Part shown: one piece after another, positions 11,735 through 54,136 of the stretch
Layout of the letters: each line of letters begins with the position of its first letter
Numbering within the stretch: position 1 is the first letter of the stretch
NCBI GenBank assembly: GCA_045807625.1
Contig: JBJMHA010000063.1
Coordinates: 1,481-65,480, forward strand
Direction: 5' to 3'
DNA length: 64,000 bases
Origin: Thermoanaerobaculia bacterium
Lineage (GTDB): Bacteria > Acidobacteriota > Thermoanaerobaculia > Multivoradales > UBA5704
Position numbers and translations under genes: made by a program
Notes under the pieces: generated by a model
The model's database searches: none
What the model saw: the letters and a program-made list of their open reading frames with translations, nothing else
What the model was told of the DNA's origin: nothing

Positions 11735-11743
11735 GGAGGAGCG

Positions 11744-38497: not shown

Positions 38498-38558
38498 GGG
38501 AGAATGGTAGCAGGGATCGCGAATTCGCCGATTCCCGAGACCTCGTATCCTTCTCCCC

Positions 38559-39740
38559 ATGCCCTCCACCGCCCTCCGCTTCCGGCCGCCGCGCCTGGCC
38601 TACACCCCGGAGGCCCGCTGGATGCTGCTGCGCGCCTTCGGCCCGGCCGGCGCGCCGTTCCCCGGAGCTTTCGATCCGGCGGCGGCGCTGGCCCTGGCAC
38701 GCCGGTTCGAGGTGGCGGCGCGGATCGCCGTCCGCCAGGGGCGGGAGCGGTTGCGGGCCGAGGTGGGGGAGGAGGCCGCGGCCGGCTTCGCCCGCGACCG
38801 GGCGCGCGCCGCGGCGGCCGGGATGCGGCTGATGGAGGAGGTGCGGCGGGTGGCGGCGGTGGCGGCGGAGCTGGGGGTGCCGCTCGCCTGCCTCAAGTTC
38901 GCCGCCCTGGAGGGGACGGGGCTCCTCGCCGCCGGCAGCCGGGGGGCCTGCGACGCCGACCTGCTGGCGCCGGGCGAGCGCGCGGAGGAGCTCTGGCGGG
39001 CGCTGGCCGCCGCCGGCTTCCAGGGCTCGGGCCTCCCCGAGGCCGAGCACCAGCTCGCGGCGCTCAAGGGGCCCCAAGGGGGGGTGATCGAGATCCACCG
39101 CCACCTCCCCGGCGTCCGCCTGGAGGGTGGGGCCTCGGCCACCTTCGAGGCGCTCGACCGCGCCGGGCTGCTCCTCCCGCTGCCGGACCTCCCCGGCCGC
39201 TGCGCGGCGCCGGCGCCGGCGGTGACAGCCGCCCACGTGCTGGTCCACGGCCTGGGGCAGCACGGCTATTGGCCGTCCTCCTATTCGCTGCTCAAAATGG
39301 CGGCCGACCTGCTCGACCTCGGGTCCCTGACCGGCCGCGCCGCCGCCTGGGTGGAGCGGGACGTCTCCGCGGCGGAGGTGGCGGCGGTGCGCCGGCTGCT
39401 GGAGCGTCTGGCGGCCGGCGAGGATCCCGCCGAATGGACGGGGCCGGAGGAGGAGCTGCTGCGGCACATCCTGGCCGGCCGCCTCGACAAGGAGTACGCG
39501 GGCTCGCTGCGGCTGGGGCTCTTCCGCCCGCAGCCGAGCGAGCGCTCGCGGCCGGCGCAGCTCGCCCGCGCCGTGCTCGGCGCCGTCTTCCTCACCGACG
39601 CCCAGATCGACGCGGTCTACGGCCGCCCCCGCACCCGCCTGGGCTACCTTGGCCGGCGGCTCGCCCGTCCCTTCGATCTGCTGCTGCGGCTGGGGAGCTA
39701 CGGGGCGCGCTGGGCCCGGCTGAGACGAGGGCGGAGCTAG
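38559..39740 (+). CDS. Nucleotidyltransferase family protein (uncharacterised NTP_transf_5 / PF14907-like), copy 1
   Basis: LKFAALEGTGLLAAGSRGACDADLLAP matches the hG[GS]...D.DLL nucleotidyltransferase motif. A paralog lies at 49922. Confidence 0.7.
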   Translation: MPSTALRFRPPRLAYTPEARWMLLRAFGPAGAPFPGAFDPAAALALARRFEVAARIAVRQGRERLRAEVGEEAAAGFARDRARAAAAGMRLMEEVRRVAAVAAELGVPLACLKFAALEGTGLLAAGSRGACDADLLAPGERAEELWRALAAAGFQGSGLPEAEHQLAALKGPQGGVIEIHRHLPGVRLEGGASATFEALDRAGLLLPLPDLPGRCAAPAPAVTAAHVLVHGLGQHGYWPSSYSLLKMAADLLDLGSLTGRAAAWVERDVSAAEVAAVRRLLERLAAGEDPAEWTGPEEELLRHILAGRLDKEYAGSLRLGLFRPQPSERSRPAQLARAVLGAVFLTDAQIDAVYGRPRTRLGYLGRRLARPFDLLLRLGSYGARWARLRRGRS

Positions 39741-40576
39741 CGCGGCTTGCGCGCCCTCACGAAGGCGCTCATGACCTTGCCGTCCACCTCCTCGACGCCG
39801 GCGGCCTCGATCCCGGCCTCTTCGAGGAAGGCGCGGGCGTCCTCGGCGTGGTAGATCCGCGTCGGCTCGACCTCGATCTCCTCGAAGCCGGCCTCGGCGA
39901 GGAGGCGCCGGTACTCCCTCTCCTGGAGGGCGCCGGCCACGCAGCCGATCCAGAGCTCCACGTTGCGCCTCACCGCCTCCGGGACCTCGCCCCGGAAGAC
40001 GACGTCGGAGACGGCGAGCCGGCCCCCGGGCCGGAGCACGCGGAAGGCTTCGGACAGCACCTTCCGCTTGTCGGCCGAGAGGTTGATCACGCAGTTCGAG
40101 ATGATCACGTCCACGGCGGCCTCCGGCAGCGGGATCGCCTCGATCTCCCCCTTGAGGAATTCGACGTTCTCCGCGCCCGCTCTGCGCTGGTTCTCCCGCG
40201 CGAGCGCGAGCATGTCGTCGGTCATGTCCAGGCCGTAGGCCTTGCCCGTGGGCCCGACCCGGCGGGCCGAGAGCAGCACGTCGATGCCTCCGCCCGAGCC
40301 GAGGTCGAGCACCGTCTCCCCCTCCTTGAGCTCGGCCAGGGCCGTGGGGTTGCCGCACCCGAGCGAGGCCAGCACCGCCTCGGCGGGCAGCCCGGCGGTC
40401 TCCTGGGCCGCGTAGAGGTCCGAGGTGATCGGGTCCTTGCCGTCGCCACAGCCGCACGTGCCGCAGCCGCAGGACGCGGCTCCTCCCTTCTGGGCTTTGC
40501 GGGCGGCCTCGCCGTACTTCGCCTGGACCACCTCGCGGAGGGCGGCGGGCTCGAGAGCCTGGGGGTCGATGCTCAT
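39737..40576 (-). CDS. arsM: Arsenite S-adenosylmethionine methyltransferase (ArsM)
   Basis: Near-canonical ArsM N-terminus (ASCGCGTCGCGDGKDPITSDLY, LASLGCGNPTALAELKEGETVLDLGSGGGIDVLLSARRVGPTGKAYGLDMTDDMLALA) with conserved Cys residues. Confidence 0.85.
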   Translation of the reverse strand: MSIDPQALEPAALREVVQAKYGEAARKAQKGGAASCGCGTCGCGDGKDPITSDLYAAQETAGLPAEAVLASLGCGNPTALAELKEGETVLDLGSGGGIDVLLSARRVGPTGKAYGLDMTDDMLALARENQRRAGAENVEFLKGEIEAIPLPEAAVDVIISNCVINLSADKRKVLSEAFRVLRPGGRLAVSDVVFRGEVPEAVRRNVELWIGCVAGALQEREYRRLLAEAGFEEIEVEPTRIYHAEDARAFLEEAGIEAAGVEEVDGKVMSAFVRARKPR

Positions 40577-40625
40577 GTTCGTCTCCTTTCTGGTTGTTAC
40601 TTGCAACTATCAGTCGAAAAAAAGC

Positions 40626-41135
40626 TCACGGGACGCGGCAGCAGCTTCCGCCGCCGGCCTCGACGCCCGCGGCAGCGGCGCGGGCGAGCCGGCGGAGCAC
40701 TCTGGTCATGGCCTGACGGACCTCGGGGGAGAAGTCGGCCAGGAGCTGGCGCTCCTCGGCCAGGATCGACTCGCGGATCTTCCCCTCCAGCTCGCGGCCC
40801 GCGGGGGTCGCCTCGAGGAGCGAGGCCCGGCGGTCCTTCGGATGCGGCAGGCGGGCCGCGTACCCCTTGCGCTCCAGGGCGTCCACGATCCGGCTGGCGG
40901 TGCTCTTGTCAAGGTAGAGGTAGGCCGCGAGGTCGTTCAGCGTCATCGAGCCCCGCCGCACCAGCCCTTCGAGGGCGTAGCACTGGGAGACCGAGACGTC
41001 GAAGCAGCAGATGCGGTCCCGGTCGCGGAACTGGTAGACGCGCAGCAGATCCTCCAGAGCGCCGTACAGCTCCTCCGTATCCCCCGCGAGGGAGGGATCG
41101 GAAGCGAGGACGGGGAGGGGGCTCGGCGAGGCCAT
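40626..41135 (-). CDS. MarR family transcriptional regulator
   Basis: Winged-helix core LVRRGSMTLNDLAAYLYLDKSTASRIVDALERKGYAARLPHPKDRRA. Upstream of arsM on the same strand. Confidence 0.8.
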   Translation of the reverse strand: MASPSPLPVLASDPSLAGDTEELYGALEDLLRVYQFRDRDRICCFDVSVSQCYALEGLVRRGSMTLNDLAAYLYLDKSTASRIVDALERKGYAARLPHPKDRRASLLEATPAGRELEGKIRESILAEERQLLADFSPEVRQAMTRVLRRLARAAAAGVEAGGGSCCRVP

Positions 41136-41226: not shown

Positions 41227-42546
41227 GTGAAATCCCCCCGTTCCAACGCCGCTCCGCCGCGCAAGGCCCCCGGCGACCTGCGGCTGGGGATCTTCTTCCT
41301 CTGGCTGCTGGTGCTGGTGCCGCCGCTGATCTGGGCGCCGGTGGCCAAGGAGTCGTTCCGGCAGCCGAAGCTCCTCGCCGCCGAGTGGCTGGCCCTGGCC
41401 TCGCTCGCCTGCCTCGCCTGGGGGCTCCGGCGGGTCGAGCGGGTGGGTCCCGCCGATCTCTGGCGGCTGCCCGCGGCGCGGATCGTCCTGCCCGTGCTGG
41501 GGGTGGCGACGCTGGGGCTCGCCTTCACCCGCCATCCGCTCCACGCGCGCGAGGCGCTGATCGACCTCTGGACCGGCGCCGCCGCGCTGGTGGGGTGGAG
41601 CGCGGCCCTGTCGTCCGAACGGCTCGCGCGCCTGCTGCGCGGGCTGCTCTGGCCCGCCTTCCTGCTGGCGCTGATCGGCATCGGCCAGTTCCACGGCGTC
41701 TGGCAGCCGCTGCGGCTCGCCCATCTCGAGGAGGGCTCGCGGCTCGCCATCACCTCGCTCGCCGGCAACCCCGGCGACCTCGCGGCGTTCCTCGTCCTCC
41801 CCTGCCTAGTGGCCCAGGACCTCCTGCGCCGGTGCGCCGGAGGAGGCTGGCGGAGCCCCGCGGGCCTGGGCGCGGTGCTGGCCCTGGCGGTCTCGGTCTA
41901 CGCCCTGTTGCTGACCCAGACCCTCGCCGCGGTGGCCGCGCTCCTGGCCGGCAGCCTGCTGCTCTGGGGGACCCGGATGCCGCGCCGCCGGGTCGCCCTC
42001 CTGCTCGCCGGCGGCGCCGTGGCCGCGGCCCTGCTGGCGGCCGGGGTGGCCCCCTTGCGCGAGCGGGTGGTGTTCAAGTGGCAGGAGATGGCCCGCGGGA
42101 ACTGGAACTCGGTGCTCACCGGCCGCTTCGACGGCTGGCGGGCGGCGGTCTGGATGTTCGAGCGCCATCCGCTCGCCGGCGTCGGCCAGGGGGCCTATCA
42201 GGCGGAGTTCGCCCCCGCCAAGCTGGCGCTGATCGACCGCGGCGCCATCTTCTTTCCCGGGCTGACCCAAGGGAGCGCCTTCGACAACGCCCACAACGAG
42301 GTCCTGGAGGCGGCGGCGGAGTGGGGGCTCCCCGGCCTGCTGGCCCTCGGCTGGGGGCTCTGGGTGCTCCTGCGGGCCCTGCGCCGGGGGGCCGGGACCC
42401 CCGAGGACCAGGCCCTGGCCTGGGCGGGCACCGCGGCGCTGGCGGTGCTCTCCCTGGTCGACTTCCCCTTCCGGGTGGCCCTGGTGGGCTTCCCCGCCCT
42501 CCTGTTCCTGAGCTGGGTATTGCGGCGGGCGGAGGAGGCGGCGTGA
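41227..42546 (+). CDS. O-antigen ligase family protein (Wzy_C domain), second paralog
   Basis: Polytopic membrane protein. Loop motif GAYQAEF...NAHNEVLEAAAEWGLPGL. Confidence 0.75.
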   Translation: MKSPRSNAAPPRKAPGDLRLGIFFLWLLVLVPPLIWAPVAKESFRQPKLLAAEWLALASLACLAWGLRRVERVGPADLWRLPAARIVLPVLGVATLGLAFTRHPLHAREALIDLWTGAAALVGWSAALSSERLARLLRGLLWPAFLLALIGIGQFHGVWQPLRLAHLEEGSRLAITSLAGNPGDLAAFLVLPCLVAQDLLRRCAGGGWRSPAGLGAVLALAVSVYALLLTQTLAAVAALLAGSLLLWGTRMPRRRVALLLAGGAVAAALLAAGVAPLRERVVFKWQEMARGNWNSVLTGRFDGWRAAVWMFERHPLAGVGQGAYQAEFAPAKLALIDRGAIFFPGLTQGSAFDNAHNEVLEAAAEWGLPGLLALGWGLWVLLRALRRGAGTPEDQALAWAGTAALAVLSLVDFPFRVALVGFPALLFLSWVLRRAEEAA

Positions 42547-42998
42547 GGGGGCGCACCCTGGCGGGGCTCCTCACCGTCCTGCTCGCCCTGGCGATGGCCG
42601 CCCAGACCGTCCGCTGGCGCGACCGTATGATGGCGAGCCGCCTGCTGGCCAACGCCGAGGCGCTCACCCTGGCAGTGGCCGCCGGCCAGATCCCCCCGGC
42701 GGCCCTGGCGGACAACCTGAAGGCGCTGCGCCGGGCGGCGGATCTCGATCCGGTGCAGGTGGGCATCCCCATCGCCCGCGGCAGCCAGTACCTCCTGCTG
42801 GGCCGCGCGGAGCCGGCCGAGCAGGTCTATCTGGAGGCGCTGCGGCTGGAGCCCAAGTCGGAGGTCTATCTCGACCTCGGACGGGCGCAGTGGCTGGCCG
42901 GCCGCAGGGAGGAGGCGCTGCGCAATTTCACCCTGGCCGTGCGGCTCGACCCCGGGCTGGTCCGCGTCCTGCCCAACGAGGCGGCCGGGGCGCCATGA
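42543..42998 (+). CDS. Small TPR-like hypothetical protein
   Basis: GTG start overlapping the ligase stop. Helical repeats (EQVYLEALRLEPKSEVYLDLGRAQWLAGRREEALRNF). Confidence 0.4.
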   Translation: MRGRTLAGLLTVLLALAMAAQTVRWRDRMMASRLLANAEALTLAVAAGQIPPAALADNLKALRRAADLDPVQVGIPIARGSQYLLLGRAEPAEQVYLEALRLEPKSEVYLDLGRAQWLAGRREEALRNFTLAVRLDPGLVRVLPNEAAGAP

Positions 42999-43390
42999 CC
43001 GCGCGGGAGCCCGATCCGCGGGTCTTCGCGGCCCTGCGCGACCTCGCCCACGAGGGGCCGGTCGAGGTGACGGTGCGCGGCGGCTGCATGGCCCCCGGAC
43101 TGGCCGACGGCGGCCGCGTGCGGGTGGCCGCCGCCCGCGTCTACCTGCCCGGCGACGTGGTGGTGTTCCGCGCCGCGGACGGCCGCCTGGTGGCCCACCG
43201 GCTCCTCGGCTACCGCCCATGGGGCCGCCGGCTCGCCCTGGTGACCCGCGGCGACTCCTGCCCCGTGCACGACGCTCCCGTCCTCCTGGCCGCCGTGCTC
43301 GGCCGGGTGGAGGCGGCAGCTCCCACCGCCCTGGCGCGGCTGCGCGCCTCCTGGCGCTTCCTGGGCCTCGCCCTGCGCCGGCGGCGATGA
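42995..43390 (+). CDS. S24/S26 peptidase-like beta-barrel protein, non-canonical (Cys in place of nucleophile Ser, no Lys)
   Basis: VRGGCMAPGLADGGRVRV...GDVVVF follows the LexA/signal-peptidase GDSMxP...GD(I/L)V pattern. ATGA-coupled to the previous gene and to the hprK-like gene. Confidence 0.6.
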   Translation: MTAREPDPRVFAALRDLAHEGPVEVTVRGGCMAPGLADGGRVRVAAARVYLPGDVVVFRAADGRLVAHRLLGYRPWGRRLALVTRGDSCPVHDAPVLLAAVLGRVEAAAPTALARLRASWRFLGLALRRRR

Positions 43391-44304
43391 GCTTCGGCGG
43401 CGGATTCCTCCGCCATCCCGACCTCTTCCCGGCCCGCCGGTCCGGCGAGCCCTGGGGGGACCGCGCCGTGGCCCTCGACGTGGCCGGCGGCCCCTATCTC
43501 CTCTCCGGCCTCGCCGCCCCGCAGGAGGAGGCGCTGCGCCGTCGCTTCGGCCCCCTGTGCGGCCCGGCGGAGGCGGAGGGGACGGTGACCGCCAGCGCGG
43601 TCTTCCGGGCCCCGGCGGCCGATTTCCTGCCGATCGACACCCGCGGCTGGGAGTACACCCTCGACCTCGACCCCGCTCCGGGCGCGCTGCGGGTCGCCGG
43701 CCTCCACCTGATGGCCCGCCTGGACTGGACGCCCGCCCTCGCCGGCGCCCTCTGGACCCCCCGGACGGAAGGAGAGGAGTGGGCGTCGGTCTGCGAGAAC
43801 TACCTCCGGATGCTGACCGCCTACCGCCTCCTGGAGCAGGGGGGCGCGCTGCTGCACAGCGCCGGGGTGAGCGACGGCGAGGCGGCCTGGCTCCTCCTCG
43901 GCCCCTCGGGCGCCGGCAAGACCACCGCCTCCCGGCTCTGCCTGGCGGGAGGGGCCACCGTCCTCTCGGACGACCTCAACGCCGTGCTCTTCGCCGGGGG
44001 GGAGGCCCGGCTCCGCAAGCTCCCCTTCACCGGCGACCTCGGCGAGCGCGCGGGGGGACCGGAGAGCGTCCCCCTGCGCGCCGTGCTGCGGCTGGCTCAG
44101 GGGGAGGTGGAGGGGCTGCGCCGGCTCTCCCCGGCGGCGGCTCTCGCCGCCCTGGTGGCCGCCTCTCCGTTCGTCAACCGCGACCCCTGGCGCCGGGAGG
44201 CGCTGCTCGCCGTGCTCGAACGGCTCGCCCGCGCCGTCCCCGCCTGGGAGGTGACGTTCTCCCGGGAGGGGGAGCTGTGGGGGATGCTCAAGGCGATTCG
44301 GTGA
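43387..44304 (+). CDS. HprK-related serine kinase, type A (HPr kinase C-terminal domain-like)
   Basis: P-loop LLLGPSGAGKTTASRL. Overall length and layout match the stand-alone HprK-like kinases seen in lasso/RiPP clusters. Confidence 0.75.
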   Translation: MSFGGGFLRHPDLFPARRSGEPWGDRAVALDVAGGPYLLSGLAAPQEEALRRRFGPLCGPAEAEGTVTASAVFRAPAADFLPIDTRGWEYTLDLDPAPGALRVAGLHLMARLDWTPALAGALWTPRTEGEEWASVCENYLRMLTAYRLLEQGGALLHSAGVSDGEAAWLLLGPSGAGKTTASRLCLAGGATVLSDDLNAVLFAGGEARLRKLPFTGDLGERAGGPESVPLRAVLRLAQGEVEGLRRLSPAAALAALVAASPFVNRDPWRREALLAVLERLARAVPAWEVTFSREGELWGMLKAIR

Positions 44305-44324
44305 GGCGGTCCCCCGCCCGATCC

Positions 44325-44369
44325 GACCGATTCGACCGATTCGACCGATTCGACGGGTCAGACCGATCA
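44325..44369. repeat. 9-bp tandem repeat (gaccgattc x3 plus two degenerate copies) in the hprK-A / pqqD intergenic region
   Basis: Copies at 44325, 44334 and 44343. Degenerate copies gacgggtca and gaccgatca follow. Confidence 0.6.
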
Positions 44370-44412
44370 CGCCTCAGAGGGCAAGAGGAGCTATACTCCG
44401 CTCCATACCCCC

Positions 44413-44712
44413 ATGAGCGACATCACTCCAGCGACCGTCCTCCGGAGGCGGTCCGACGTGCGCTACCGCCGGATCGAGGGGGAGGCGGTGGTGCTCCGCC
44501 AGGCCGCGGCCGAGGTGCTGGTGCTCAACGAGGTCGGCGCCTCGGTGCTCGACCTGGCGGACGGCGAGCGCTCGGTGGGGGAGTGGATCGACGCCCTGGC
44601 GGACGAGTACGAGGGGGATTCCGGGACCCTCGCCCATGACGTGCTCGCCTTCGCCGCCGAGCTCGCCGAGGCCGGTCTGCTGGAGCCGGTCGACCCGGAG
44701 CGGCAGCCGTGA
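44413..44712 (+). CDS. PqqD family protein (RiPP recognition element / peptide chaperone)
   Basis: 99 aa, MSDITPATVLRRRSDVRYRRIEGEAVVLRQ...VLNEVGASVLDL..GERSVGEWIDALADEY, the typical PqqD fold signature. Confidence 0.8.
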   Translation: MSDITPATVLRRRSDVRYRRIEGEAVVLRQAAAEVLVLNEVGASVLDLADGERSVGEWIDALADEYEGDSGTLAHDVLAFAAELAEAGLLEPVDPERQP

Positions 44713-45800
44713 GCCTGTCGCGGGTGGTCGCCGCCGCCTGGCGGGAGAACCTGCTGTTCTCGGTCCTCCTGGAGCTGACCTACCGCTGCAACCTCGACTG
44801 CTTCTTCTGCTACAACGACGTCGGATTGCGCGGCGAGCCGCTCTCCCGCGAGCAGTACTTCCAGCTCCTCGCGGACCTGCGGGAGATGGAGGTGATGAAC
44901 CTCACCCTCTCGGGGGGGGAGCCGCTGGCCCATCCGGACTTCGTGGCGCTGGGGGCGCGGGCGCGGGAGCTCGGCTTCGTGGTGCGGGTCAAGTCCAACG
45001 GCCACGCCCTGCGCGGCGAGCTCGCCCGCCGGGTGCGCGACGAGGTCGACCCCTTCCTGATCGAGGTCAGCCTCCACGGCGCCACCGCCCCCACCCACGA
45101 CCGCCAGACCCGCGTGCCGGGGAGCTTCGACCGCCTCGTCGCCAACCTGCGGGAGCTGCGGGAGCTGGGTCTGCGGGTGAAGCTCAACAGCACGCTCACC
45201 CGCTGGAACGAGGGGGAGATCGAGGGGATGTTCGCCCTCGCCGATGCGCTCGGCCTGCCGCTCCAGGTCGACCCCGAGGTGACGCCGCGCGACGACGGCG
45301 GCCGCGAGCCGCTCCAGGTGGCCCCCAGCCCCGAGGGGGTGCTCCGCCTCTTCCGCCTGCAGTTCGCGCGGGGGAGGGCGGCGGAGGAGGGAAAGCCGGA
45401 GGTCCAGGTGGCGCGCGGCGGCGGCGACGGCACCGTGCCCGTGCCGGTCCACAAGCACTGTGGCGCCGGCTCTTCCGGCATCGCGGTCGATCCGTTCGGC
45501 AACGTCTACCCCTGCGTGCAATGGCGCCGGCCGGTGGGGAGCCTCCACCATCAGAGGATCGGCGAGATCTGGCGGGGGTCGGCCGGCCTCGCCGAGGTGC
45601 GCGATCTCACGGTCCAGGTGAAGGAGCGGATCGGCGCCGAGGGGCCGGGGAGCCACCTGCTCAACTTCTGTCCCGGCTCGGCCGCCGCCCACGCCGGGGA
45701 TCCGCTGGCGCTCTACCCCGCGGCGGTGCAGCGCCGGGAGATCCTGGAGCAGGTGATGGGGGAAGAGGGGAAGAGGCCGCTGCTGCCGGTGGTGCGCTAG
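44709..45800 (+). CDS. Radical SAM / SPASM-domain peptide-modifying enzyme
   Basis: CNLDCFFC (CxxxCxxC) N-terminal cluster, and C-terminal Cys-rich SPASM region (HCGAGSSGIAVDPFGNVYPCVQW, NFCPGSAAAH). Translationally coupled to pqqD. Confidence 0.85.
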   Translation: MSLSRVVAAAWRENLLFSVLLELTYRCNLDCFFCYNDVGLRGEPLSREQYFQLLADLREMEVMNLTLSGGEPLAHPDFVALGARARELGFVVRVKSNGHALRGELARRVRDEVDPFLIEVSLHGATAPTHDRQTRVPGSFDRLVANLRELRELGLRVKLNSTLTRWNEGEIEGMFALADALGLPLQVDPEVTPRDDGGREPLQVAPSPEGVLRLFRLQFARGRAAEEGKPEVQVARGGGDGTVPVPVHKHCGAGSSGIAVDPFGNVYPCVQWRRPVGSLHHQRIGEIWRGSAGLAEVRDLTVQVKERIGAEGPGSHLLNFCPGSAAAHAGDPLALYPAAVQRREILEQVMGEEGKRPLLPVVR

Positions 45801-46304
45801 AGGTTACGAGGAGATCGGCCCCGAGGGGCAGAGGCCAGGGTTCCCCTTGGCGGGAGGGGAGGGGGCGCACACGGCCGCCACCGCCTCCAGCGGCTCGCGG
45901 GAGAGGACGCGGGGCCGCTCCCAGGGCCGCTTCGCGCGCGCGCCGGTCTCTCCGGGAGTCTGTGGCTTCGAGGGTCCGCTCCGCATTCCTCTTCTCAGGC
46001 GCTCCGCCGAGCTTGCGCGACGGGCGATTCTTCATTTCTACGTCGATCTGAGACTAAGCCCCTGTGAGGGATGTGTCAAGCTGGGCCCCAAAACCGGATA
46101 TCTCAATATTTAAGCCTATTTAGGACCAAAGGGATGCGGCACGGACGATTTTACCGTCCCGCTGCGGGAAGATGGGGCAAAAATTTTATAGCCATTCTTC
46201 AAAAAGCTGACGGTTCCGTCTGAGATTCCGGGCGTCCGAAGAGGGGACCACCGCTGCTTTGTTCTGGCCCACCTCTTGCAGTGGAGGTCTGGCGGCTTGG
46301 ATCA

Positions 46305-46320
46305 AGGCACACCCGCTGCG
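46305..46320 (+). promoter_or_regulatory. Candidate sigma-54 (-24/-12) promoter upstream of the secreted-protein / lasso-like operon
   Basis: aGGCACacccgcTGCg with GG and GC spaced 12 nt apart (46306-07, 46318-19). It lies 240 nt upstream of the 46560 start. Confidence 0.35.
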
Positions 46321-46559
46321 AGGCGGGGCCGCAAAGCCAGGGGTCTCCCGCCGAGATCGCCCGGTCGCCGAAAAGCCCTCAAAGGCACGTAGTCACGCGT
46401 AGCTCAGCAGGGGGCAGCTTTCATGGTACCGGGTCTCGATTCACCGCCGTTCCTCCCATCCAGCAGAGCTCCGTAGCGGGACCGCGCAGAGCGGCTCCGT
46501 AGTCTTTTTTTGTGCTGAGAAAAACCGATTGGATCCACCGACAAAAAGGAGAGCTGACA

Positions 46560-48011
46560 ATGAGTTTCCATCGGAAGATGACCTTGATGATCCTGGCGCT
46601 GCTGGCCTTCTCGGCGGCCGCCAACGCCACCCAACTCGGGCCGTTCATCGATCTCCAGGAGCAGGGGCTCTCGATGACCCACGACGGCCATGGGCTCTGG
46701 ACCTGGGGCGGCGGCCCGGTGAGCTTCAACGTCACCATCGGCGGCCCGGTGCGCTTCGCCCTGCTCTACTGGGCGGGCCGCGAGCGGCCGTGCACGCTCG
46801 ACGGCAGCGGCACCAACTGCCCGTTCACGCAGCCTTACAAGGACCAGGTGCTGAATTTCAACGGTGCTCCGATCACCGGCACCGTGATCGGCTCCGAGAC
46901 CCAGCCGACCAGCGGCGGCGGCCCGATCCTCAACGTGGGCTACTACGCCGACGTCACGGGCATCGTCTCCGCGGCGGGCACCGGGCCCCAGTCGTTCACG
47001 CTGACCGACGGTGACACGTCGAGCAATTTCTGGCGCTTCGACGGCGCCGCCCTGCTCGTTGCCTACAAGGACGGCACGAACCTCGACACCTACCGCATCC
47101 TCGTCCAGGACGGCCTGGACTTCGCCTACGGCGACGACCCCACCCCCGGTGACAACCGGGTGACCGCGCCGGTCACCTTCAACCATGGCGTCAACTTCTC
47201 GAACCGCACGGCCGACCTCCTTCTGTTCGCGGGAGACGGCGACGCCGACCGGCCGGACAACACCACGATCAGCAACAACCCGACGCTGTTCAACATCCTC
47301 AACTCGACGCAGGGACCGGAGTACAACACCGTCCTGACGCCGATCAGCATCCCCTCCGGCGCCGGCACCACCACGGTGCAGATGAACTCGGCGCCCGCCG
47401 GCCAGAACCCCGATTCGCTGCTCTGGGAGCTGGCCGCCCTGCGCGTCCAGCAGCTCGACATCGCCGGCGCGACCTGCCCGGCGCGGGTCATCGCCGGGCC
47501 GCCGACCCAGCTCCAGGTGACGGTCTCCGACGTCAACACCGGCATCCAGAGCATCGTGGTGACCCAGTCGGACAACGCCGACACGCCGGTGCCGCCGTTC
47601 ACCGTCGGCACCACCGACCCGGTGACCATCACCGCCACCAAGATCAACCAGTCGCAGCCCGCCCACGTCACCATCCAGGTGACCGACCTGGCCGGCAACA
47701 CCGTCACCTGCGACCCGGTGATCACGCTGATCCAGCGCAGCTCCAAGGAGGATCCGCAGCAGAACCGCCTCCGGGTGCCGGCTGAGGAGAGCAAGATCCA
47801 GATCATGAACGGCGAGCCGGGGCTCCGGACTTTCACCGCCCTGGTCAACGGCGTCACCTTCAAGGTGACCGGCCTGCGCAACAACGAGGTGCGTACCCTC
47901 GACGTCTCCTCGGCGATGCGCGCAGGCAACAAGAACATCGTCTACGTCAAGGGGCATGGCCCGCAGAACGCCTCGGCCACGGTGGTCCTCTCCGACGGCT
48001 CCGTCCAGTAG
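46560..48011 (+). CDS. Secreted Thr/Asn/Gly-rich protein of unknown function
   Basis: RBS aaaggagag. Signal peptide MSFHRKMTLMILALLAFSAAANA. No recognisable catalytic motifs. Confidence 0.65.
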   Translation: MSFHRKMTLMILALLAFSAAANATQLGPFIDLQEQGLSMTHDGHGLWTWGGGPVSFNVTIGGPVRFALLYWAGRERPCTLDGSGTNCPFTQPYKDQVLNFNGAPITGTVIGSETQPTSGGGPILNVGYYADVTGIVSAAGTGPQSFTLTDGDTSSNFWRFDGAALLVAYKDGTNLDTYRILVQDGLDFAYGDDPTPGDNRVTAPVTFNHGVNFSNRTADLLLFAGDGDADRPDNTTISNNPTLFNILNSTQGPEYNTVLTPISIPSGAGTTTVQMNSAPAGQNPDSLLWELAALRVQQLDIAGATCPARVIAGPPTQLQVTVSDVNTGIQSIVVTQSDNADTPVPPFTVGTTDPVTITATKINQSQPAHVTIQVTDLAGNTVTCDPVITLIQRSSKEDPQQNRLRVPAEESKIQIMNGEPGLRTFTALVNGVTFKVTGLRNNEVRTLDVSSAMRAGNKNIVYVKGHGPQNASATVVLSDGSVQ

Positions 48012-48102
48012 GCGGAAGACGACGGCACGAATCTTGAATTGAAGCCCGGCATACTCCCGGAGGATGTATGCCGGGCGCCTTTCCAACAAGGAGGATCGTT
48101 CC

Positions 48103-48180
48103 ATGGTCAAGAAGGCGTACAGAAGGCCGTCCCTACGGCGTCTGGGCCTGCTGCGGCGGGTCACCCGGTTCAGCTTTTAG
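48103..48180 (+). CDS. 25-aa basic peptide with lasso-peptide leader motif (leader-only / decayed precursor)
   Basis: MVKKAYRRPSLRRLGLLRRVTRFSF* with a strong RBS (aaggagga 8 nt upstream). Y6, P9, L11, G15 and T21 fit the YxxPxLxxxGxxxxxT leader consensus with Thr at -2, leaving only FSF as core. Lies immediately upstream of the PqqD/B2 genes. Confidence 0.5.
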   Translation: MVKKAYRRPSLRRLGLLRRVTRFSF

Positions 48181-48272: not shown

Positions 48273-48554
48273 ATGATCGACGCGCAGAGCCGCCCCCGCC
48301 ACCGGGAGCGGGTGCTGACCCAGACGGCGGCCGGGACGCTGGTCCTGCTCGACCTCGACGGCGGGCAGTACTACTCCCTCGACGAGGTGAGCGCCCGCGT
48401 CTGGGAGCTGTGCGACGGCGAGCACGGCGTGGAGGGGATCGTGGAGGCGATCAGCGCCGAGTACGACGCCCCGGCGGAGACGATCTACGAGGACGTCCTG
48501 GCGTTCCTCGAGGAGATGCTGGATGAGAAGCTCCTGGTCGTCGAGGGCGCGTGA
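48273..48554 (+). CDS. PqqD family protein (lasso B1-like RRE), copy 2
   Basis: MIDAQSRPRHRERVLTQTAAGTLVLLDLDGGQYYSLDEVSARVWELCDGEHGVEGIVEAISAEYDAP. RBS ggaggg. Confidence 0.75.
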   Translation: MIDAQSRPRHRERVLTQTAAGTLVLLDLDGGQYYSLDEVSARVWELCDGEHGVEGIVEAISAEYDAPAETIYEDVLAFLEEMLDEKLLVVEGA

Positions 48555-48960
48555 GCCCCTCCCGGAGACCCTCCTCCCCGTCCGCGTGATTCTTTTCGCG
48601 GCGCTGGTGCCGCTGCTCCTGCGGCTCTGCAGGCTCCCCCGCCTGCGGGCCTGGGTCGAGCCCCGGCGGCGGTCCCCCGCGCCGCCCGGCCCTGAGGAGA
48701 TCGAGGCGCTGACCCAGCGGATCGACGAGCTCCTGATCGCCGGCCGGCCGGCGGTCCGCACCGGCTGTATGGTCCGCGGCCTCACCCTCTACCGCTTCCT
48801 CCGCCGGGCGGGCGCGGACGTCTCCCTCCGCTTCGGCGTCGGCACCATCCGCGGCAACTTCGCCGCCCACTGCTGGATCGTCTACCAGGGCGAGCCCCTG
48901 GCCGAGACGCACGACCCCCGCCCCCTGTTCACCGAGACCTGGAGGATCGAGCCCGCGTGA
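48523..48960 (+). CDS. Transglutaminase-like cysteine protease, lasso B2-type (PF13471-like)
   Basis: C...H...D triad context CMVRGLTLYRFLRRAGADVSLRFGV...GNFAAHCWIVYQGEPL resembles the McjB C-terminal domain. Overlaps the PqqD gene end (alternative GTG start at 48586). Confidence 0.7.
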   Translation: MRSSWSSRAREPLPETLLPVRVILFAALVPLLLRLCRLPRLRAWVEPRRRSPAPPGPEEIEALTQRIDELLIAGRPAVRTGCMVRGLTLYRFLRRAGADVSLRFGVGTIRGNFAAHCWIVYQGEPLAETHDPRPLFTETWRIEPA

Positions 48961-49925
48961 GCGATCGCGCCTACCTTCTGCACGGAGTACGGCTCGGCGT
49001 GCTGGCCACGGGCGAGGGGGAGAAGGCCGCCGCGGGGGTCCACGCGCGGCTGGCCGGCCTGCCGCTCGACGGCGGCCCCCCCTGGGACGTCACCTTCGAG
49101 ATCCAGGCCGCCGGGAGCCACGCCTTCGAGCGCCCGGAGGCGGCGCGGCCGGTCTACGATCCGCCGCTCGGCGAGGTGGTCTACGACGACGCGGCCGACC
49201 GGCTCTTCATCGGCTACGGCCCCCGCCTGCGGGTGCTCTGCGAGCCCGGCCGCGGCCGAGCCCGGGCCTCGGCGGCGGGGATGGCGGAGGAGGACCTGTG
49301 GTCTCTCTCCCACCCCCTGTTCACCCTGCCGCTGGTGGAGCTGCTGAAGCGCCGCGGCCTCTACGGCCTCCACGCCGGGGGCGTCTGCCGGGGCGGCCGC
49401 GCCCTGCTCCTGCCCGGCACCAGCGGCTCGGGGAAGTCGACCCTCACCCTGGCGCTGGCGCGGGCGGGCTTCGATCTGCTGGGCGACGATACCCTCTTCC
49501 TCGCCCGCCGGCCCGGAGAGGCGCCGCGGGTCCTCGCCTTCCCGGATGAATTCGACCTCACCGGCCAGACCGTCTCGTTCTTTCCCGAGCTCGCCCCCCT
49601 GCTCGGCGGGCCGGCCCCGGCGGGGTGGCGCAAGCGGCAGGTGCGGGCCGAGCGGGCCTACGGGGCGCCGGTGGCCTGGGAGTGCGCTCCGGCGGTGCTG
49701 GTCTTCCCCCGGGTGGCCGGCGTCCCAGAGAGCGAGCTGACCCCCCTGAGCGCCGGGGAGGCGCTGCTGGAGCTCGTCCCCAACGTGCTGCTGACCGAGC
49801 CCCGCTCCTCCCAGGCCCACCTGGACGCCCTGGCCGAGCTGGTGGCGGCGAGCGAATGCTTCCGCCTGGCCACCGGGACCGACCTGGAAGCGGCGGCGCG
49901 GCTGGTGGGAGGGCTGCTGCCGTGA
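48957..49925 (+). CDS. HprK-related serine kinase, type B
   Basis: P-loop LLLPGTSGSGKSTLTLAL. GTG start overlapping the B2 stop. Paralogous to the 43387 gene. Confidence 0.75.
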   Translation: MSDRAYLLHGVRLGVLATGEGEKAAAGVHARLAGLPLDGGPPWDVTFEIQAAGSHAFERPEAARPVYDPPLGEVVYDDAADRLFIGYGPRLRVLCEPGRGRARASAAGMAEEDLWSLSHPLFTLPLVELLKRRGLYGLHAGGVCRGGRALLLPGTSGSGKSTLTLALARAGFDLLGDDTLFLARRPGEAPRVLAFPDEFDLTGQTVSFFPELAPLLGGPAPAGWRKRQVRAERAYGAPVAWECAPAVLVFPRVAGVPESELTPLSAGEALLELVPNVLLTEPRSSQAHLDALAELVAASECFRLATGTDLEAAARLVGGLLP

Positions 49926-50968
49926 CCCGCGAGGACCGCCTCCTCTGCCTCTGCGCCCGGCAGGAATTCCTCACCGGACACCGCCGGGCGGTGGAGGAGC
50001 TCTGCCGCGGCGCCGCCGTGCGCTGGAGCCGCCTGGCCGCGGCGGCGGAGCGGCACGGGGTGCTCCCCATCGTGGGGGCCAACCTCCGGACGTGCGACGC
50101 CGGCCTGCCGGAGGATCTCGCCGTCCGCTGCGAGCTCGCCGTCCTCGAGAACGCGGCCGTCCGCGAGCGGGACGCCGACCGCCTGGCCGACGGGCTCGCC
50201 CGTTTGCGCGAGGTCGAGCTGGAGGCGATGCTGCTCAAGGGGACGGCTCTCGCGCTCTCCGTCTACACCGAGCCCTGGGTGGTGACCTCGCAGGACATCG
50301 ACCTCGTCCTCCGCCCCACCGGGCCGGGGTGGGCGAAGGGGAAGGGGAGGGAGAAGGAGGTCCGCCGCGCCCTCTATACGAACGGCGTCGAGTGCGACCT
50401 CGAGACCCACCACGACGTCACCATGAACGGCGTGCTGCCGGTCGACTTCGCGCGCATCTGGCGCGAGGCGCGGCCGGTGGGCTTCCGCGGCGTGCCCGCC
50501 TGGAGGATGTCCCCCGAGGACCTGCTGATCTCCCTCTGCGTCAACTGCTGCCGCAAGCGCTTCCGCCTCAAGGGGGTGTTCGACGTCGCCGAGACGCTGC
50601 GCCGCGGGGAGCCCCTCGACCAGGGGCGGCTGGGTGTCCTGGCCCGCGAGGGGCGGTGCGAGGGGATCGTCTACGCGGCCCTGGTGGTGGCTCGGGGAGC
50701 GCTCGACGCCGGGCTGCCGGCGGGGTTCCTGGAGCCTCTGGGGGTCTCGCCGGTCCGGGCGGCCCTGCTGCGGTCCCTGGCCGCGGCCTTCCTGGGCGCC
50801 GCCCCCTTCACCGGCCGCTCCGGCCGTCCGCTGGCCCTGGCCCTCGCCTACGCGAGCCTCCGGCCGGCCGAGGCCTGGAGGTCCGTCCGCTACAGCCTGA
50901 CCCATCCGGACAAGCACAAGGGGGAGGACCCGCAGGCTCCGGCGCAGGCGGCGGTCGCGGGTTCGTAG
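49922..50968 (+). CDS. Nucleotidyltransferase family protein (PF14907-like), copy 2
   Basis: MLLKGTALALSVYTEPWVVTSQDIDLVL motif. GTG start overlapping the kinase stop. Confidence 0.7.
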   Translation: MTREDRLLCLCARQEFLTGHRRAVEELCRGAAVRWSRLAAAAERHGVLPIVGANLRTCDAGLPEDLAVRCELAVLENAAVRERDADRLADGLARLREVELEAMLLKGTALALSVYTEPWVVTSQDIDLVLRPTGPGWAKGKGREKEVRRALYTNGVECDLETHHDVTMNGVLPVDFARIWREARPVGFRGVPAWRMSPEDLLISLCVNCCRKRFRLKGVFDVAETLRRGEPLDQGRLGVLAREGRCEGIVYAALVVARGALDAGLPAGFLEPLGVSPVRAALLRSLAAAFLGAAPFTGRSGRPLALALAYASLRPAEAWRSVRYSLTHPDKHKGEDPQAPAQAAVAGS

Positions 50969-51004: not shown

Positions 51005-52495
51005 ATGAGAGCCATGGCGCGCCACGACGCCCTCATCGCCGAGAAGCGGCGGATCCTCCAGCTCGAGACCCTCTACGACCTGGCGATCGCCCTCCACGCG
51101 CAGGGTCCGGAGCAGGAGCTGGTCGACGAGCTGCTGCAAAGGGTCTGCGCCGTGCTCGATCCGGCGGCGGCCGTGGCGGTCACCCGCGACGCCTATGGCG
51201 GGGCCCGCGGGGTCGCCTCGGTCGGCTGGCTGGACGACCTGCCCACGGGGGACGCCCTGCTGGCGGCCCCGATCTGGCGGGAGCTGCTGACCGAGGGGCA
51301 CACGCTTGTCCGCGCGGGCGGCGAGCTGGCCGGCCGCCCCTACGAGCAGCTCCTCGCCGCCCCCCTCTCCTACCGCGGCGTCTTCCTGGGCTACGTCGCC
51401 GTGCTCGACAAGGAGGTGCGGGGTGACTCGGACCACTCCTTCACCCCCGACGACCGGCGCTTCCTCGACTCGGTGACCGCCCTCGCCGGCGCCGCCCTCG
51501 ACGCCGCCCGCCAAGTCGAGCGCCTGGAGACCCAGCGCGAACGGCTGGAGGAGGAGAACAAGGCCCTCAAGGGGCGGCTCGCCCAGGAGGTCGCGGGGCG
51601 GCGGATCGTGGCCCTGGCGCCGCCGATGCGCCGCGTGCTGGACGTCATCGAGCGGGTGGCGCCGCGCGGCGTCAGCGTCCTGGTGCGGGGGGAGAGCGGC
51701 ACGGGCAAGGAGCTGGTGGCGAAGCTCCTCCACCACCTCTCCGGCCGCGGGGGGGCGCTGATCGCCGTCAACTGCGCGGCCCTCCCCGAGTCGCTGCTGG
51801 AGAGCGAGCTCTTCGGCATCGAGGGCGGAGTCGCCACCGGCGTCCAGGCGCGGCCGGGAAAGTTCGAGCTGGCCGACCGCGGCACCCTCTTCCTCGACGA
51901 GATCGGCGACATGCAGACCTCCCTCCAGGTGCGGCTCCTGCGGGCCCTCCAGGAGCGCGAGGTCACCCGCGTCGGCGGCCGGCGGCCGATCCCCGTGGAC
52001 GTGCGGCTGGTCGCCGCGACCCACCAGGACCTGGAGGCGCTGATCGGCGACGGCCGCTTCCGCGAGGACCTCTACTACCGCCTCAAGGGGGTGGAGATCG
52101 AGCTCCCCCCGCTGCGCGAGCGCAAGCAGGACGTCCCCCACCTGGTGCGCGCCTTCGTCGAGGAGTTCTGCCGCCGGGAGGGGATCCCGGTCCCGGCGTT
52201 CCGCTCGGAGGCGCTCGCCCTGCTGCTCGCCTACGACTTCCCGGGCAACGTCCGCGAGCTGCAGAACGTGGTCGAGGGGGCCGTCTCCCTGGCCGACGGC
52301 GAGATCGGCGCCGAGCTGATCCGCTCCCTGCTCGCCGCGCCCCCCGCCCAGCAGACCGCCCCCGAGGCGCTCGACCTCGTCACCCTGGAGCGCCGCCATA
52401 TCGCCCGCGTCCTCAAGCTGACCAACGGCAACAAGAGCGAGGCGGCGAAGATTCTCGGGCTCGACCGCAAGACGTTGCAGCGGAAGGGATACTGA
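51005..52495 (+). CDS. Sigma-54-dependent transcriptional activator (GAF - AAA+ sigma-54 interaction - Fis-type HTH)
   Basis: Walker [15 protein letters not shown] motif, [16 protein letters not shown], and a C-terminal [18 protein letters not shown]. Confidence 0.85.
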
Positions 52496-53337: not shown

Positions 53338-53772
53338 ATGCCTGAAGGCGTTTTGAGAGCCGTCGAGCTGGCGCTGCCGATGGTCCCCGAGATGGAGATC
53401 GAGGCGAGCAGGACCGCGACCGCGATCGCCGAGTGGATCGGGATGAGCCCCGACCGCATCGACGAGGTCAGGATGGCGGTGGTGGAGGCCTGCATCAACG
53501 CCTTGGAGCACAGCCACGCCTCCGACCGCGAGGTCTACGTGACGTTCCAGGTCCTGGGGGAAGGGGGGGACCCGGAGAAGCTGCGCATCATGGTCCGCGA
53601 CACCGGGATCGGTTTCTCCCCGAATGTCGTCGAGGAGCCCACGATCGAGGGTAAGATCAAGGCGGTGCGCAAGCGCGGCTGGGGTCTCAAGATCATCCGC
53701 GGGCTCATGGACGAGGTGGAGATCCTCTCCGGCGCCGACGGCACGACTGTCGTAATGAGTAAGATGCGATGA
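53338..53772 (+). CDS. Anti-sigma factor / serine-protein kinase (RsbW/SpoIIAB-like, HATPase_c)
   Basis: N-box VEACINALEHSH, G-boxes DTGIGF and GWGLKIIRGLMDEV. Confidence 0.8.
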   Translation: MPEGVLRAVELALPMVPEMEIEASRTATAIAEWIGMSPDRIDEVRMAVVEACINALEHSHASDREVYVTFQVLGEGGDPEKLRIMVRDTGIGFSPNVVEEPTIEGKIKAVRKRGWGLKIIRGLMDEVEILSGADGTTVVMSKMR

Positions 53773-53785
53773 AAGCGGGGGCGAG

Positions 53786-54136
53786 ATGACCGAGAGCCTC
53801 AACATCACCGTGGATCGACGCGAAGGGCTGGCGGTGATCTATACGGAGGGGTATATCAACAACCAGGGGGGCGAGGAGATCGCCAAATCGGCCTACAAGC
53901 TCCTCGACGAAGGCTACAAGACCCTCCTCCTCAACCTGGCGGGGACGAAGATCGTCAACTCGATCGGCATCTCCATCCTCATCGAGATCATCGAGAAGAT
54001 GATCGAGATCGAGGGCAAGCTGGGATTCTGCTGCTTGACTCCGACCATCGAAAAGACCTTCCATATCATGGGCCTCGCGCAGTACGCTCCCATCTATCCG
54101 GATGAGGCGACCGCGGTGGCGCAGATGCGGTCCTGA
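53786..54136 (+). CDS. Anti-sigma factor antagonist (STAS domain, RsbV/SpoIIAA-like)
   Basis: 116 aa. LLLNLAGTKIVNSIGISILIEI carries the conserved phospho-Ser region. Confidence 0.85.
   Translation: MTESLNITVDRREGLAVIYTEGYINNQGGEEIAKSAYKLLDEGYKTLLLNLAGTKIVNSIGISILIEIIEKMIEIEGKLGFCCLTPTIEKTFHIMGLAQYAPIYPDEATAVAQMRS

Follow-up and report, generated by a model that had tools for sequence, protein, structure and literature searches.

Known systems that pair a PqqD-type protein with a radical S-adenosylmethionine (SAM) enzyme include the SynChlorMet cassette, for which we know of no precursor named by its curators, and the sactipeptides and ranthipeptides, which belong to the RiPPs (peptides made on the ribosome and modified after translation). 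The sacti/ranthipeptide synthase CteB carries a three-cysteine auxiliary cluster with an open site and, in addition, a second auxiliary cluster. In lasso peptide clusters, B1 proteins of the PqqD type recognize a YxxPxL motif at positions -17 to -12 of the leader (PMC10368454). Phosphorylated lasso peptides are made by a kinase and nucleotidyltransferase pair: homologs of HPr kinase that share a His-Lys-Asp-Asp motif add phosphate to the precursor's C-terminal Ser, and in pseudomycoidin PsmN extends the phosphate (PMC9266682). Here we describe a locus with features of each of these systems in a 64,000-nucleotide stretch (the window; GC content ~71%) of contig JBJMHA010000063.1 from a Thermoanaerobaculia bacterium of the phylum Acidobacteriota. 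An original prediction, made from the letters of the window, had placed a peptide-modification module without a visible precursor at 42995-45800. Our analysis makes it likely that this module, called module 1 below, is a RiPP-type maturation operon whose substrate is a 60-residue peptide encoded immediately downstream at 45804-45986, and that the product has a role at the cell surface or in biofilm rather than as an antibiotic.

A conserved gene for the probable precursor peptide

The precursor gene had been declared missing from the flanks because the earlier reading sought only an open reading frame (ORF) on the strand of the enzyme genes with a ribosome-binding site. A six-frame search, of the kind recommended earlier as a check, was run on the intergenic segments: all intergenic stretches were translated in six frames and compared by tblastn with 84 related loci, which had been retrieved via the radical SAM enzyme. 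Intergenic conservation was limited to two peptide genes and a riboswitch region. One of the two genes, at 45804-45986 on the minus strand, encodes the 60-residue peptide MRSGPSKPQTPGETGARAKRPWERPRVLSREPLEAVAAVCAPSPPAKGNPGLCPSGPISS and is convergent with the radical SAM gene, the two stop codons being 3 nt apart.

This ORF, a single copy in each locus, adjoins the radical SAM gene; tblastn shows it to be conserved in 75 loci, and a hidden Markov model finds it in 77 of 85. Precursor families that co-occur with the radical SAM homologs had been another of the checks proposed earlier. It stays beside the radical SAM gene despite rearrangements of strand and order (L070, L073, L075, L076, L080, and L084) and remains with it in loci L067-L084, where the neighbouring DUF3344 and Wzy_C genes are absent. 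Mean column entropies at the three codon positions are 0.48, 0.30, and 1.09, and of the codon differences that involve a single nucleotide, 81% are synonymous in the precursor frame, compared to 7-61% in the other five frames. A set of 5.8 billion proteins yielded homologs in 997 clusters, mostly of 53-62 aa and all unnamed ("hypothetical"); the peptide matched no family in Pfam or NCBIfam at E <= 10. Judged from these sequence data, namely selection in the right frame, a conserved start codon and promoter, presence in 77 of 85 loci, and the 997 clusters, the ORF is a real protein-coding gene under purifying selection and not antisense noise.

The promoter of the precursor gene is of the sigma-70 type and occupies 46051-46079 on the minus strand (TTGACA at 46079-46074, a 17-nt spacer, and TAGTCT at 46056-46051), ~64 nt upstream of the ATG. 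The ATG and the pattern TTGACA-N17-TA(G/C)(G/C/T)CT are conserved in ~20 of 26 aligned upstream regions in a lineage of ~70% GC. A simple promoter scan of 42.5-48.3 kb returned no sigma-70 site, and the promoter came from the alignment only. About 30 nt 5' of the -35 box, at ~46100-46125 in the minus-strand reading, many related loci also share the motif CTAAATAG(C/G), which may be a binding site for a regulator.

The N-terminus of the peptide is variable in length and sequence, and conservation begins at Y/W22 and extends over the C-terminal 42 residues, with P25, E34, A37, C40, K47, C53, and S60 invariant. In the top 120 clusters, the distances from Y to the first Cys (18), from the first to the second Cys (13), and from the second Cys to the C-terminus (7) are all fixed; exactly two Cys are present in 118 of these clusters and a C-terminal Ser in all 120. 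The core sequence hardly changes between Thermoanaerobaculia, Holophagales, and Vicinamibacteria. The conserved part starts with W22-x-x-P25-x-V27 in the window and Y-x-x-P-x-I in most orthologs, and module 1 thus joins a YxxPxL-type leader motif to a B1/PqqD-type protein, as lasso clusters do. When the register of the lasso B1 motif is applied, the leader would end at A38 and Cys40 would be the second residue of the core. A35, A37, and A38 are small residues, as is also fitting for a peptidase of the S26 type.

Candidate maturation enzymes

The four genes of the original prediction are all present on the plus strand: an S24/S26-fold protein of 131 aa, the proposed leader peptidase (42995-43390); a P-loop kinase of the ScmC family with an HprK/PEPCK fold, 305 aa (43387-44304); a PqqD-family RiPP recognition element (RRE) of 99 aa (44413-44712); and a radical SAM enzyme of 363 aa, the last gene of the run (44709-45800). 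Their translational coupling through ATGA overlaps, also predicted, holds for three of the four couplings claimed. The TPR/peptidase and peptidase/kinase junctions are ATGA overlaps (42995-42998 and 43387-43390) and the PqqD/radical SAM junction is a GTGA overlap (44709-44712), but the kinase and PqqD genes are 108 nt apart and not coupled. In other genomes, this gap ranges from an overlap to ~100 nt. In the window it contains a 9-nt tandem repeat, CCGATTCGA, in four copies at 44318-44354 (+); the closest relatives, L005 and L007, have a palindromic GATCCGACCGATC... element in its place and also share a conserved TATACTCC ~15 nt 5' of the PqqD ATG, which could serve as an internal promoter or as a site of processing. 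The gap (44305-44412) was itself considered as a site for the precursor and rejected, as it has no in-frame start codon and its length varies across genomes.

The pairing of PqqD with a radical SAM enzyme was borne out. PqqD1 is a standard member of its family (Pfam PF05402, E 1e-13) with no match to ScmD. Its gene always adjoins the radical SAM gene in the related loci. The radical SAM enzyme (PF04055, E 8e-20) has its CX3CX2C motif at C27-X3-C31-X2-C34. Six Cys and no others are 100% conserved among 81 orthologs: C27, C31, and C34, which serve the radical SAM cluster, and C251, C269, and C321. SPASM domains are defined by the seven-cysteine motif CX9-15GX4C...CX2CX5CX3C...C, which binds two auxiliary clusters. 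The SPASM assignment of the original prediction therefore stands only in so far as Pfam gives a partial match (profile positions 1-52 of 67): the CX2CX5CX3C block is absent, and only C251, C269, and C321 are conserved C-terminally. Since there are three such residues, we read the enzyme as one with a single three-cysteine auxiliary cluster, twitch-like or partial SPASM.

The best PDB sequence match of this enzyme is PqqE (6C8V, E 8e-20), with BlsE, SkfB, and CteB next, and its best full-length matches are peptide-modifying enzymes, namely PqqE, MftC, the sactipeptide maturase StsB, and CteB. All its NCBIfam matches (NirJ, MftC, PqqE, StsB, ScmE/F, and others) are far under the cutoffs. A database protein from a Thermoanaerobaculia metagenome-assembled genome is 100% identical; the enzyme is encoded in ~310 of 185,579 species genomes and is 57-92% identical across ~80 species. 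Module 1 thus has the parts of RRE/radical SAM RiPP pathways, that is, a PqqD-like RRE, a CX3CX2C core in which C27, C31, and C34 are invariant, and a small co-located gene with conserved leader and core. The prediction of a RiPP-type module is strengthened, as the co-located precursor carries an RRE-type leader motif.

The kinase had been named an HprK-like kinase A, and this name should be revised in favor of ScmC. In NCBIfam, it weakly matches ScmC (E 2e-5) and HprK_rel_B (E 3e-3), and its orthologs are annotated with Pfam PF27840 (ScmC). A profile comparison shows homology with the HprK-related kinase A of the window (hhalign probability 96%, E 4e-9). Its AlphaFold2 model has a mean confidence (pLDDT) of 94.5, with PEP carboxykinase (PEPCK) and HPr kinase/phosphatase as the best PDB folds. 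H157, K178, D195, and D196 do not vary among 15 orthologs, and in 44 broader relatives D196 is just nearly invariant. We read these four residues as the His-Lys-Asp-Asp motif of the lasso kinases, the match being one of description and not of aligned families. The set occurs together with a precursor ending in Ser, and phosphorylation of Ser60 is predicted because this invariant terminal residue fits the reported specificity of the lasso kinases.

The 131-residue protein has the predicted S24/S26 fold, with Cys in place of the nucleophilic Ser and no Lys. Its profile matches human SEC11A (E 7e-4), with GDCMAP aligned to SGSMEP, AHRLL to IVHRV, and TRGDxCxxHD to TKGDNNAVDD. In NCBIfam, it weakly resembles archaeal-type signal peptidase I and SipW. 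The AlphaFold2 model (pLDDT 86) is closest in the PDB to SEC11C/A, then to LexA, UmuD, and lambda cI. Cys31, His68, Asp87, and Asp93 are invariant in 39 homologs, and the nucleophile is Cys in every member of the family examined. Signal peptidases of the endoplasmic reticulum (ER) type use Ser/His/Asp and not Ser/Lys; the lack of Lys is therefore expected, and the sole real departure is the change from Ser to Cys. The protein had been called non-canonical, which is right with respect to its Cys, but it does not look odd or dead: all ER-type motifs are kept, which implies an active Cys/His enzyme. A thiol signal peptidase would be chemically plausible, as the S90C mutant of E. coli LepB is reportedly still active. 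The model has no long hydrophobic segment resembling a transmembrane anchor (as judged on the model and not with a transmembrane predictor), and we therefore take the protein to be soluble. With a Cys nucleophile and no such segment in the model, it departs from signal peptidase I of the S26B type, which has a Ser-His(-Asp) site and a membrane anchor.

Genomic setting and the adjacent module

The original prediction was correct about the four genes and too narrow about the extent of the operon. The coupled run opens with a Wzy_C (O-antigen ligase/polymerase-like) membrane protein at 41227-42546 (+; PF04932, E 1e-17), followed through a GTGA overlap by a TPR protein with an N-terminal hydrophobic segment at 42543-42998 (+; TPR_2 and related Pfam families), which is coupled in turn to the peptidase gene. 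Wzy_C lies 5' of the cassette in most loci, and the TPR protein is fused to it in L001 and L002. An NTP_transf_5 protein with a nucleotidyltransferase fold (38511-39740, +; PF14907, E 1e-12; start codon not fixed) and a second peptide module travel along with these genes. The NTP_transf_5 gene is directly coupled to the Wzy_C gene in other genomes and, in several distant loci as well (L074, L081, L068, and L078), lies next to the cassette. In the window, an ArsM-like SAM methyltransferase (39737-40606, -) and a MarR regulator (40626-41135, -) stand between the two, covering 39737-41135; NTP_transf_5 and Wzy_C are contiguous or overlapping in the related genomes examined (e.g., L003).

The set of Cys-type peptidase, ScmC-family kinase, PqqD, and radical SAM genes is found together in nearly all loci that have sufficient flank. 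It lies within a large exopolysaccharide (EPS) locus encoding, among others, Wzc, CpsB, ATP sulfurylase/APS kinase, a Wzx-like flippase, an epimerase, and a PMT_2 glycosyltransferase. In distant loci without Wzy_C, the cassette is still beside Wzc, a GT4 initiating transferase, Peptidase_C25 giants, or GGDEF/EAL proteins. The giants, of 1365-1761 aa with a terminal Peptidase_C25 (gingipain-like) domain, adjoin the cassette in several distant genomes and are all encoded on the minus strand (L068 11271-15812, L078 11260-16545, L082 11371-15765, and L003 16311-20408). Reg_prop/Y_Y_Y-GGDEF and GGDEF-EAL proteins take their place next to the cassette in L070, L075, and L084.

The 760-bp region downstream of the radical SAM gene had been described as lower in GC and apparently non-coding. 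The GC content does fall to ~0.59-0.63 past 45800, but the region holds the 60-residue peptide gene and a riboswitch for cyclic di-GMP (c-di-GMP). The latter, a c-di-GMP-I (GGC variant) aptamer at 46297-46373 (+; Rfam RF03167, 56 bits, E 2e-11), is above the Rfam gathering score in seven of seven related loci and lies ~190 nt 5' of a gene for a DUF3344 protein with a signal-peptide-like N-terminus (46561-48011). The DUF3344 gene adjoins the cassette in many genomes. A sigma-54-like box, TGGCCC-N5-TTGCA, is found directly before the riboswitch at 46265-46280.

The second conserved peptide gene belongs to module 2. It encodes the 25-residue peptide MVKKAYRRPSLRRLGLLRRVTRFSF at 48103-48180 (+) and is supported, like the first, by conservation and codon pattern (codon-position entropies of 0.21, 0.16, and 0.78). 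It is present in ~29 loci, always just 5' of PqqD2, and consists of a complete lasso leader, YxxPxLxxxGxxxxxT-x, followed by the three-residue core FSF. Conserved elements 5' of this gene are a sigma-54 box, GGCACG-N4-TTGA (48024-48037), a hairpin in the 5' untranslated region (48044-48054/48066-48076) with compensatory changes, and a strong Shine-Dalgarno sequence. Across the window, 20 sigma-54 boxes were found compared to 16 expected, which is no excess, and only the box before the module-2 peptide is conserved. The enzyme genes of module 2, all on the plus strand, encode PqqD2 (48276-48554), a lasso-B2-like protease with a transglutaminase core (48523-48960), the HprK-related kinase A (48957-49925), and an NTP_transf_5 protein (~49985-50968); no lasso cyclase follows the 25-residue peptide gene and its enzyme genes.

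Modules 1 and 2 are adjacent, and their relative order varies between genomes (L042, L043, L047, and L048), which argues that both modules work together. Module 2 is followed on the plus strand by a GAF-containing sigma-54 activator (51005-52495), which stays beside it in many related loci, and then by a partner-switching set that extends to 55740: a HATPase_c_2 anti-sigma-like kinase (53338-53772), a STAS protein (53786-54136), and a GAF-SpoIIE phosphatase (54157-55740).

Proposed pathway and relation to known systems

In the pathway that we propose, PqqD would bind the leader through the Y/W-x-x-P-x-I/V motif, and the radical SAM enzyme would act on the core, at the two invariant Cys or close to them. 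Thioether cross-links are favored as the product of this step because of the Cys pair and the three-cysteine auxiliary cluster, whose free iron site would bind a substrate thiolate. The kinase would phosphorylate the invariant C-terminal Ser60 in the manner of the lasso-peptide kinases, and NTP_transf_5 may extend the Ser phosphate by a sugar or a nucleotide, by analogy with PsmN. The Cys/His/Asp peptidase is expected to remove the leader within the invariant small-residue stretch E-A-V-A-A just before Cys40, leaving a peptide of ~22 residues. A nearly invariant core, one copy in each locus, and the EPS/c-di-GMP context all argue for a conserved role at the surface or in biofilm and against an antibiotic.

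Several observations weigh against this pathway or parts of it. The 60-residue peptide gene was not found within 10 kb in L001, L024, L050, and L079, loci with ample flank, and a search of L001 and L050 for a divergent copy gave none in L001 and a lasso-type precursor in its place in L050. (In L050, from Holophagales, this conventional-looking lasso precursor, containing …PYVSPRLTELGDLRSITLGGSPGFGDS… at 12140-12337, comes after the radical SAM gene together with an HprK-like kinase and a PqqD gene; the stretch concerned is 11107-12359 on the minus strand.) No exporter or immunity gene was recognized in the cassette. The enzyme has no second cluster like that of CteB, and a thioether is therefore only one possible modification; its N-terminal matches to the cofactor enzymes NirJ/AhbD are also as good as those to peptide enzymes. 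Cleavage at A37|A38 and cleavage at A38|V39 each fit some rules and break others. More generally, we infer the chemical steps and the biological role from genes, folds, motifs, conservation, and co-location, and the product is a predicted one.

Three other explanations were weighed. The pathway could be the same and its product an ordinary antimicrobial RiPP, or bacteriocin, with the link to EPS being incidental. An RRE, a radical SAM enzyme, a leader peptidase, and a tailoring kinase are indeed typical of antimicrobial RiPP clusters, and the same kinase and nucleotidyltransferase pair serves phosphorylated lasso peptides. However, bacteriocin cores usually diversify, whereas this core is nearly constant through Thermoanaerobaculia, Holophagales, and Vicinamibacteria; the conserved set includes neither an ABC exporter nor an immunity gene, and the EPS/c-di-GMP association persists in rearranged and distant loci. 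We regard a bacteriocin as unlikely. The constancy of the core across the class, together with the single copy and a critical C-terminus, would also be expected of a precursor like PqqA or MftA, from which the enzymes cut out a few conserved residues and remodel them into a cofactor or redox molecule, so that no peptide of ~22 residues results. The ranking of PqqE as best PDB sequence match and of MftC among the top full-length NCBIfam matches, and the housekeeping-like identity of the radical SAM enzyme over ~80 species, point the same way. Such a cofactor is nevertheless quite improbable. The PQQ and mycofactocin models score far under their cutoffs, the conserved stretch spans ~40 residues and is not a short terminal motif, and a kinase and a nucleotidyltransferase are foreign to both known cofactor pathways. 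Moreover, the cassette is not accompanied by a dehydrogenase or any other enzyme that uses a cofactor; its neighbours are EPS, c-di-GMP, and protease genes.

Finally, the small ORF may be a bystander, for example a regulator or an artefact of antisense overlap, while the enzymes act on another substrate such as the DUF3344 surface protein or an EPS enzyme. The position of the gene on the strand opposite the enzymes, its own promoter, its absence from a few loci, and the frequent presence of DUF3344 next to the cassette would be accounted for in this way. Against these stand the selection pattern, which is that of a protein, the persistence of the ORF beside the radical SAM gene where DUF3344 and Wzy_C are missing, and the RRE-type leader motif at fixed spacing from the invariant Cys, which together with the terminal Ser match the enzyme set. 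These make a bystander very unlikely, and maturation of the 60-residue peptide by the module-1 enzymes remains the reading that we prefer.

A more speculative extension, to which we give little credence at present, is that both modules make small phospho-(glyco)peptides that are physically joined to exopolysaccharide or prime its synthesis, giving a peptide-anchored or peptide-capped matrix polymer. If so, the kinase and NTP_transf_5 would assemble a peptide-Ser-phosphate-sugar head group, to which the translationally coupled ligase-like Wzy_C-TPR protein would add glycan, and the matrix polymer would be under c-di-GMP and sigma-54 control. We know of no class of bacterial glycoconjugate of this kind.

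The locus is of interest for several reasons. A substrate is now proposed for an enzyme set whose closest curated relative is the SynChlorMet cassette. The RiPP-like family is widespread in Acidobacteriota, with ~310 species genomes encoding the radical SAM enzyme and 997 peptide clusters, in a phylum from which, to our knowledge, almost no peptide natural products have been characterized. Its parts are unusual in themselves: what would be a natural thiol signal peptidase of the ER type in the cytoplasm, a radical SAM enzyme with a three-cysteine single cluster, and a lasso-type leader without a cyclase. The constant tie to EPS and c-di-GMP suggests that the modified peptide is conserved in the biology of the biofilm matrix, which is not the usual role of a RiPP. 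In the full-text literature on SynChlorMet/ScmC, on RiPPs of Thermoanaerobaculia, on the peptide sequences, and on PqqD combined with HPr kinase and EPS, no such peptide or system was found described.

Compared to SynChlorMet (NCBIfam TIGR04248-TIGR04251: ScmC, ScmD, ScmE, and ScmF), module 1 shares an ScmC-family HprK-like protein, a PqqD homolog, and radical SAM enzymes of the PqqE-like kind. It differs in scores (23.8 vs 125 bits for ScmC, 70.4 vs 400 for ScmE, and 70.2 vs 400 for ScmF), in having one radical SAM enzyme instead of two, with a single auxiliary cluster, and in adding a Cys-type signal-peptidase-like gene, the Wzy_C/TPR context, and an identified precursor. The scores are likewise far from those of GeoRSP (25.4 vs 100 bits for PqqD and 64.8 vs 400 bits for radical SAM/SPASM) and of the PQQ and mycofactocin pathways (82.6 vs 381 bits for PqqE and 101 vs 265 bits for MftC), whose curated families in NCBIfam and Pfam leave the precursor unmatched. 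Compared to ER-type signal peptidases (Sec11/SPC18, archaeal signal peptidase I, and SipW), the 131-residue protein has the same fold and corresponding motifs, GxCMAP/AHRLL/TRGDxCxxHD for GxSMxP/VHRV/TKGDNNxxD; unlike them, it has a Cys nucleophile, lacks an anchor-like segment in its model, and is encoded inside a peptide-maturation operon.

With the thioether RiPPs formed by radical SAM enzymes and RREs, that is, the sactipeptides and the ranthipeptides (CteB/thermocellin, SkfB, and StsB), module 1 shares the RRE-assisted radical SAM enzyme and a Cys-containing core, and CteB, SkfB, and StsB are among the sequence matches of its enzyme. Unlike theirs, this enzyme has one auxiliary cluster site, its RRE is a separate protein, its cross-link is a predicted one, and its precursor is unrelated to SCIFF or other curated precursors. 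With the clusters of phosphorylated lasso peptides (paeninodin PadeK, ThcoK, pseudomycoidin PsmK/PsmN, and BsfK), it shares the YxxPxL leader with a PqqD-type B1 protein, the HPr-kinase-like enzyme with its His/Lys/Asp/Asp set, and the NTP_transf_5 partner (PMC9266682, PMC10368454). Position -2 of its leader, however, is Ala and not Thr. It has an S26-like Cys peptidase in place of B2 and an added radical SAM enzyme, and thus lacks the lasso pair of B2 and an Asn-synthetase-like cyclase (C); no Asn_synthase domain was found in the ~46 window ORFs scanned with Pfam, a scan that was not exhaustive. Given that the curated scores fall short, that the enzyme has an incomplete SPASM motif, and that the scan gave no cyclase, module 1 is, as far as its genes and domains can tell, not a SynChlorMet, GeoRSP, PQQ, mycofactocin, or lasso system. 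By analogy with these systems, we infer that it is a radical SAM/RRE RiPP-like pathway in which the leader would be recognized, and the C-terminus phosphorylated, in the style of lasso peptides.

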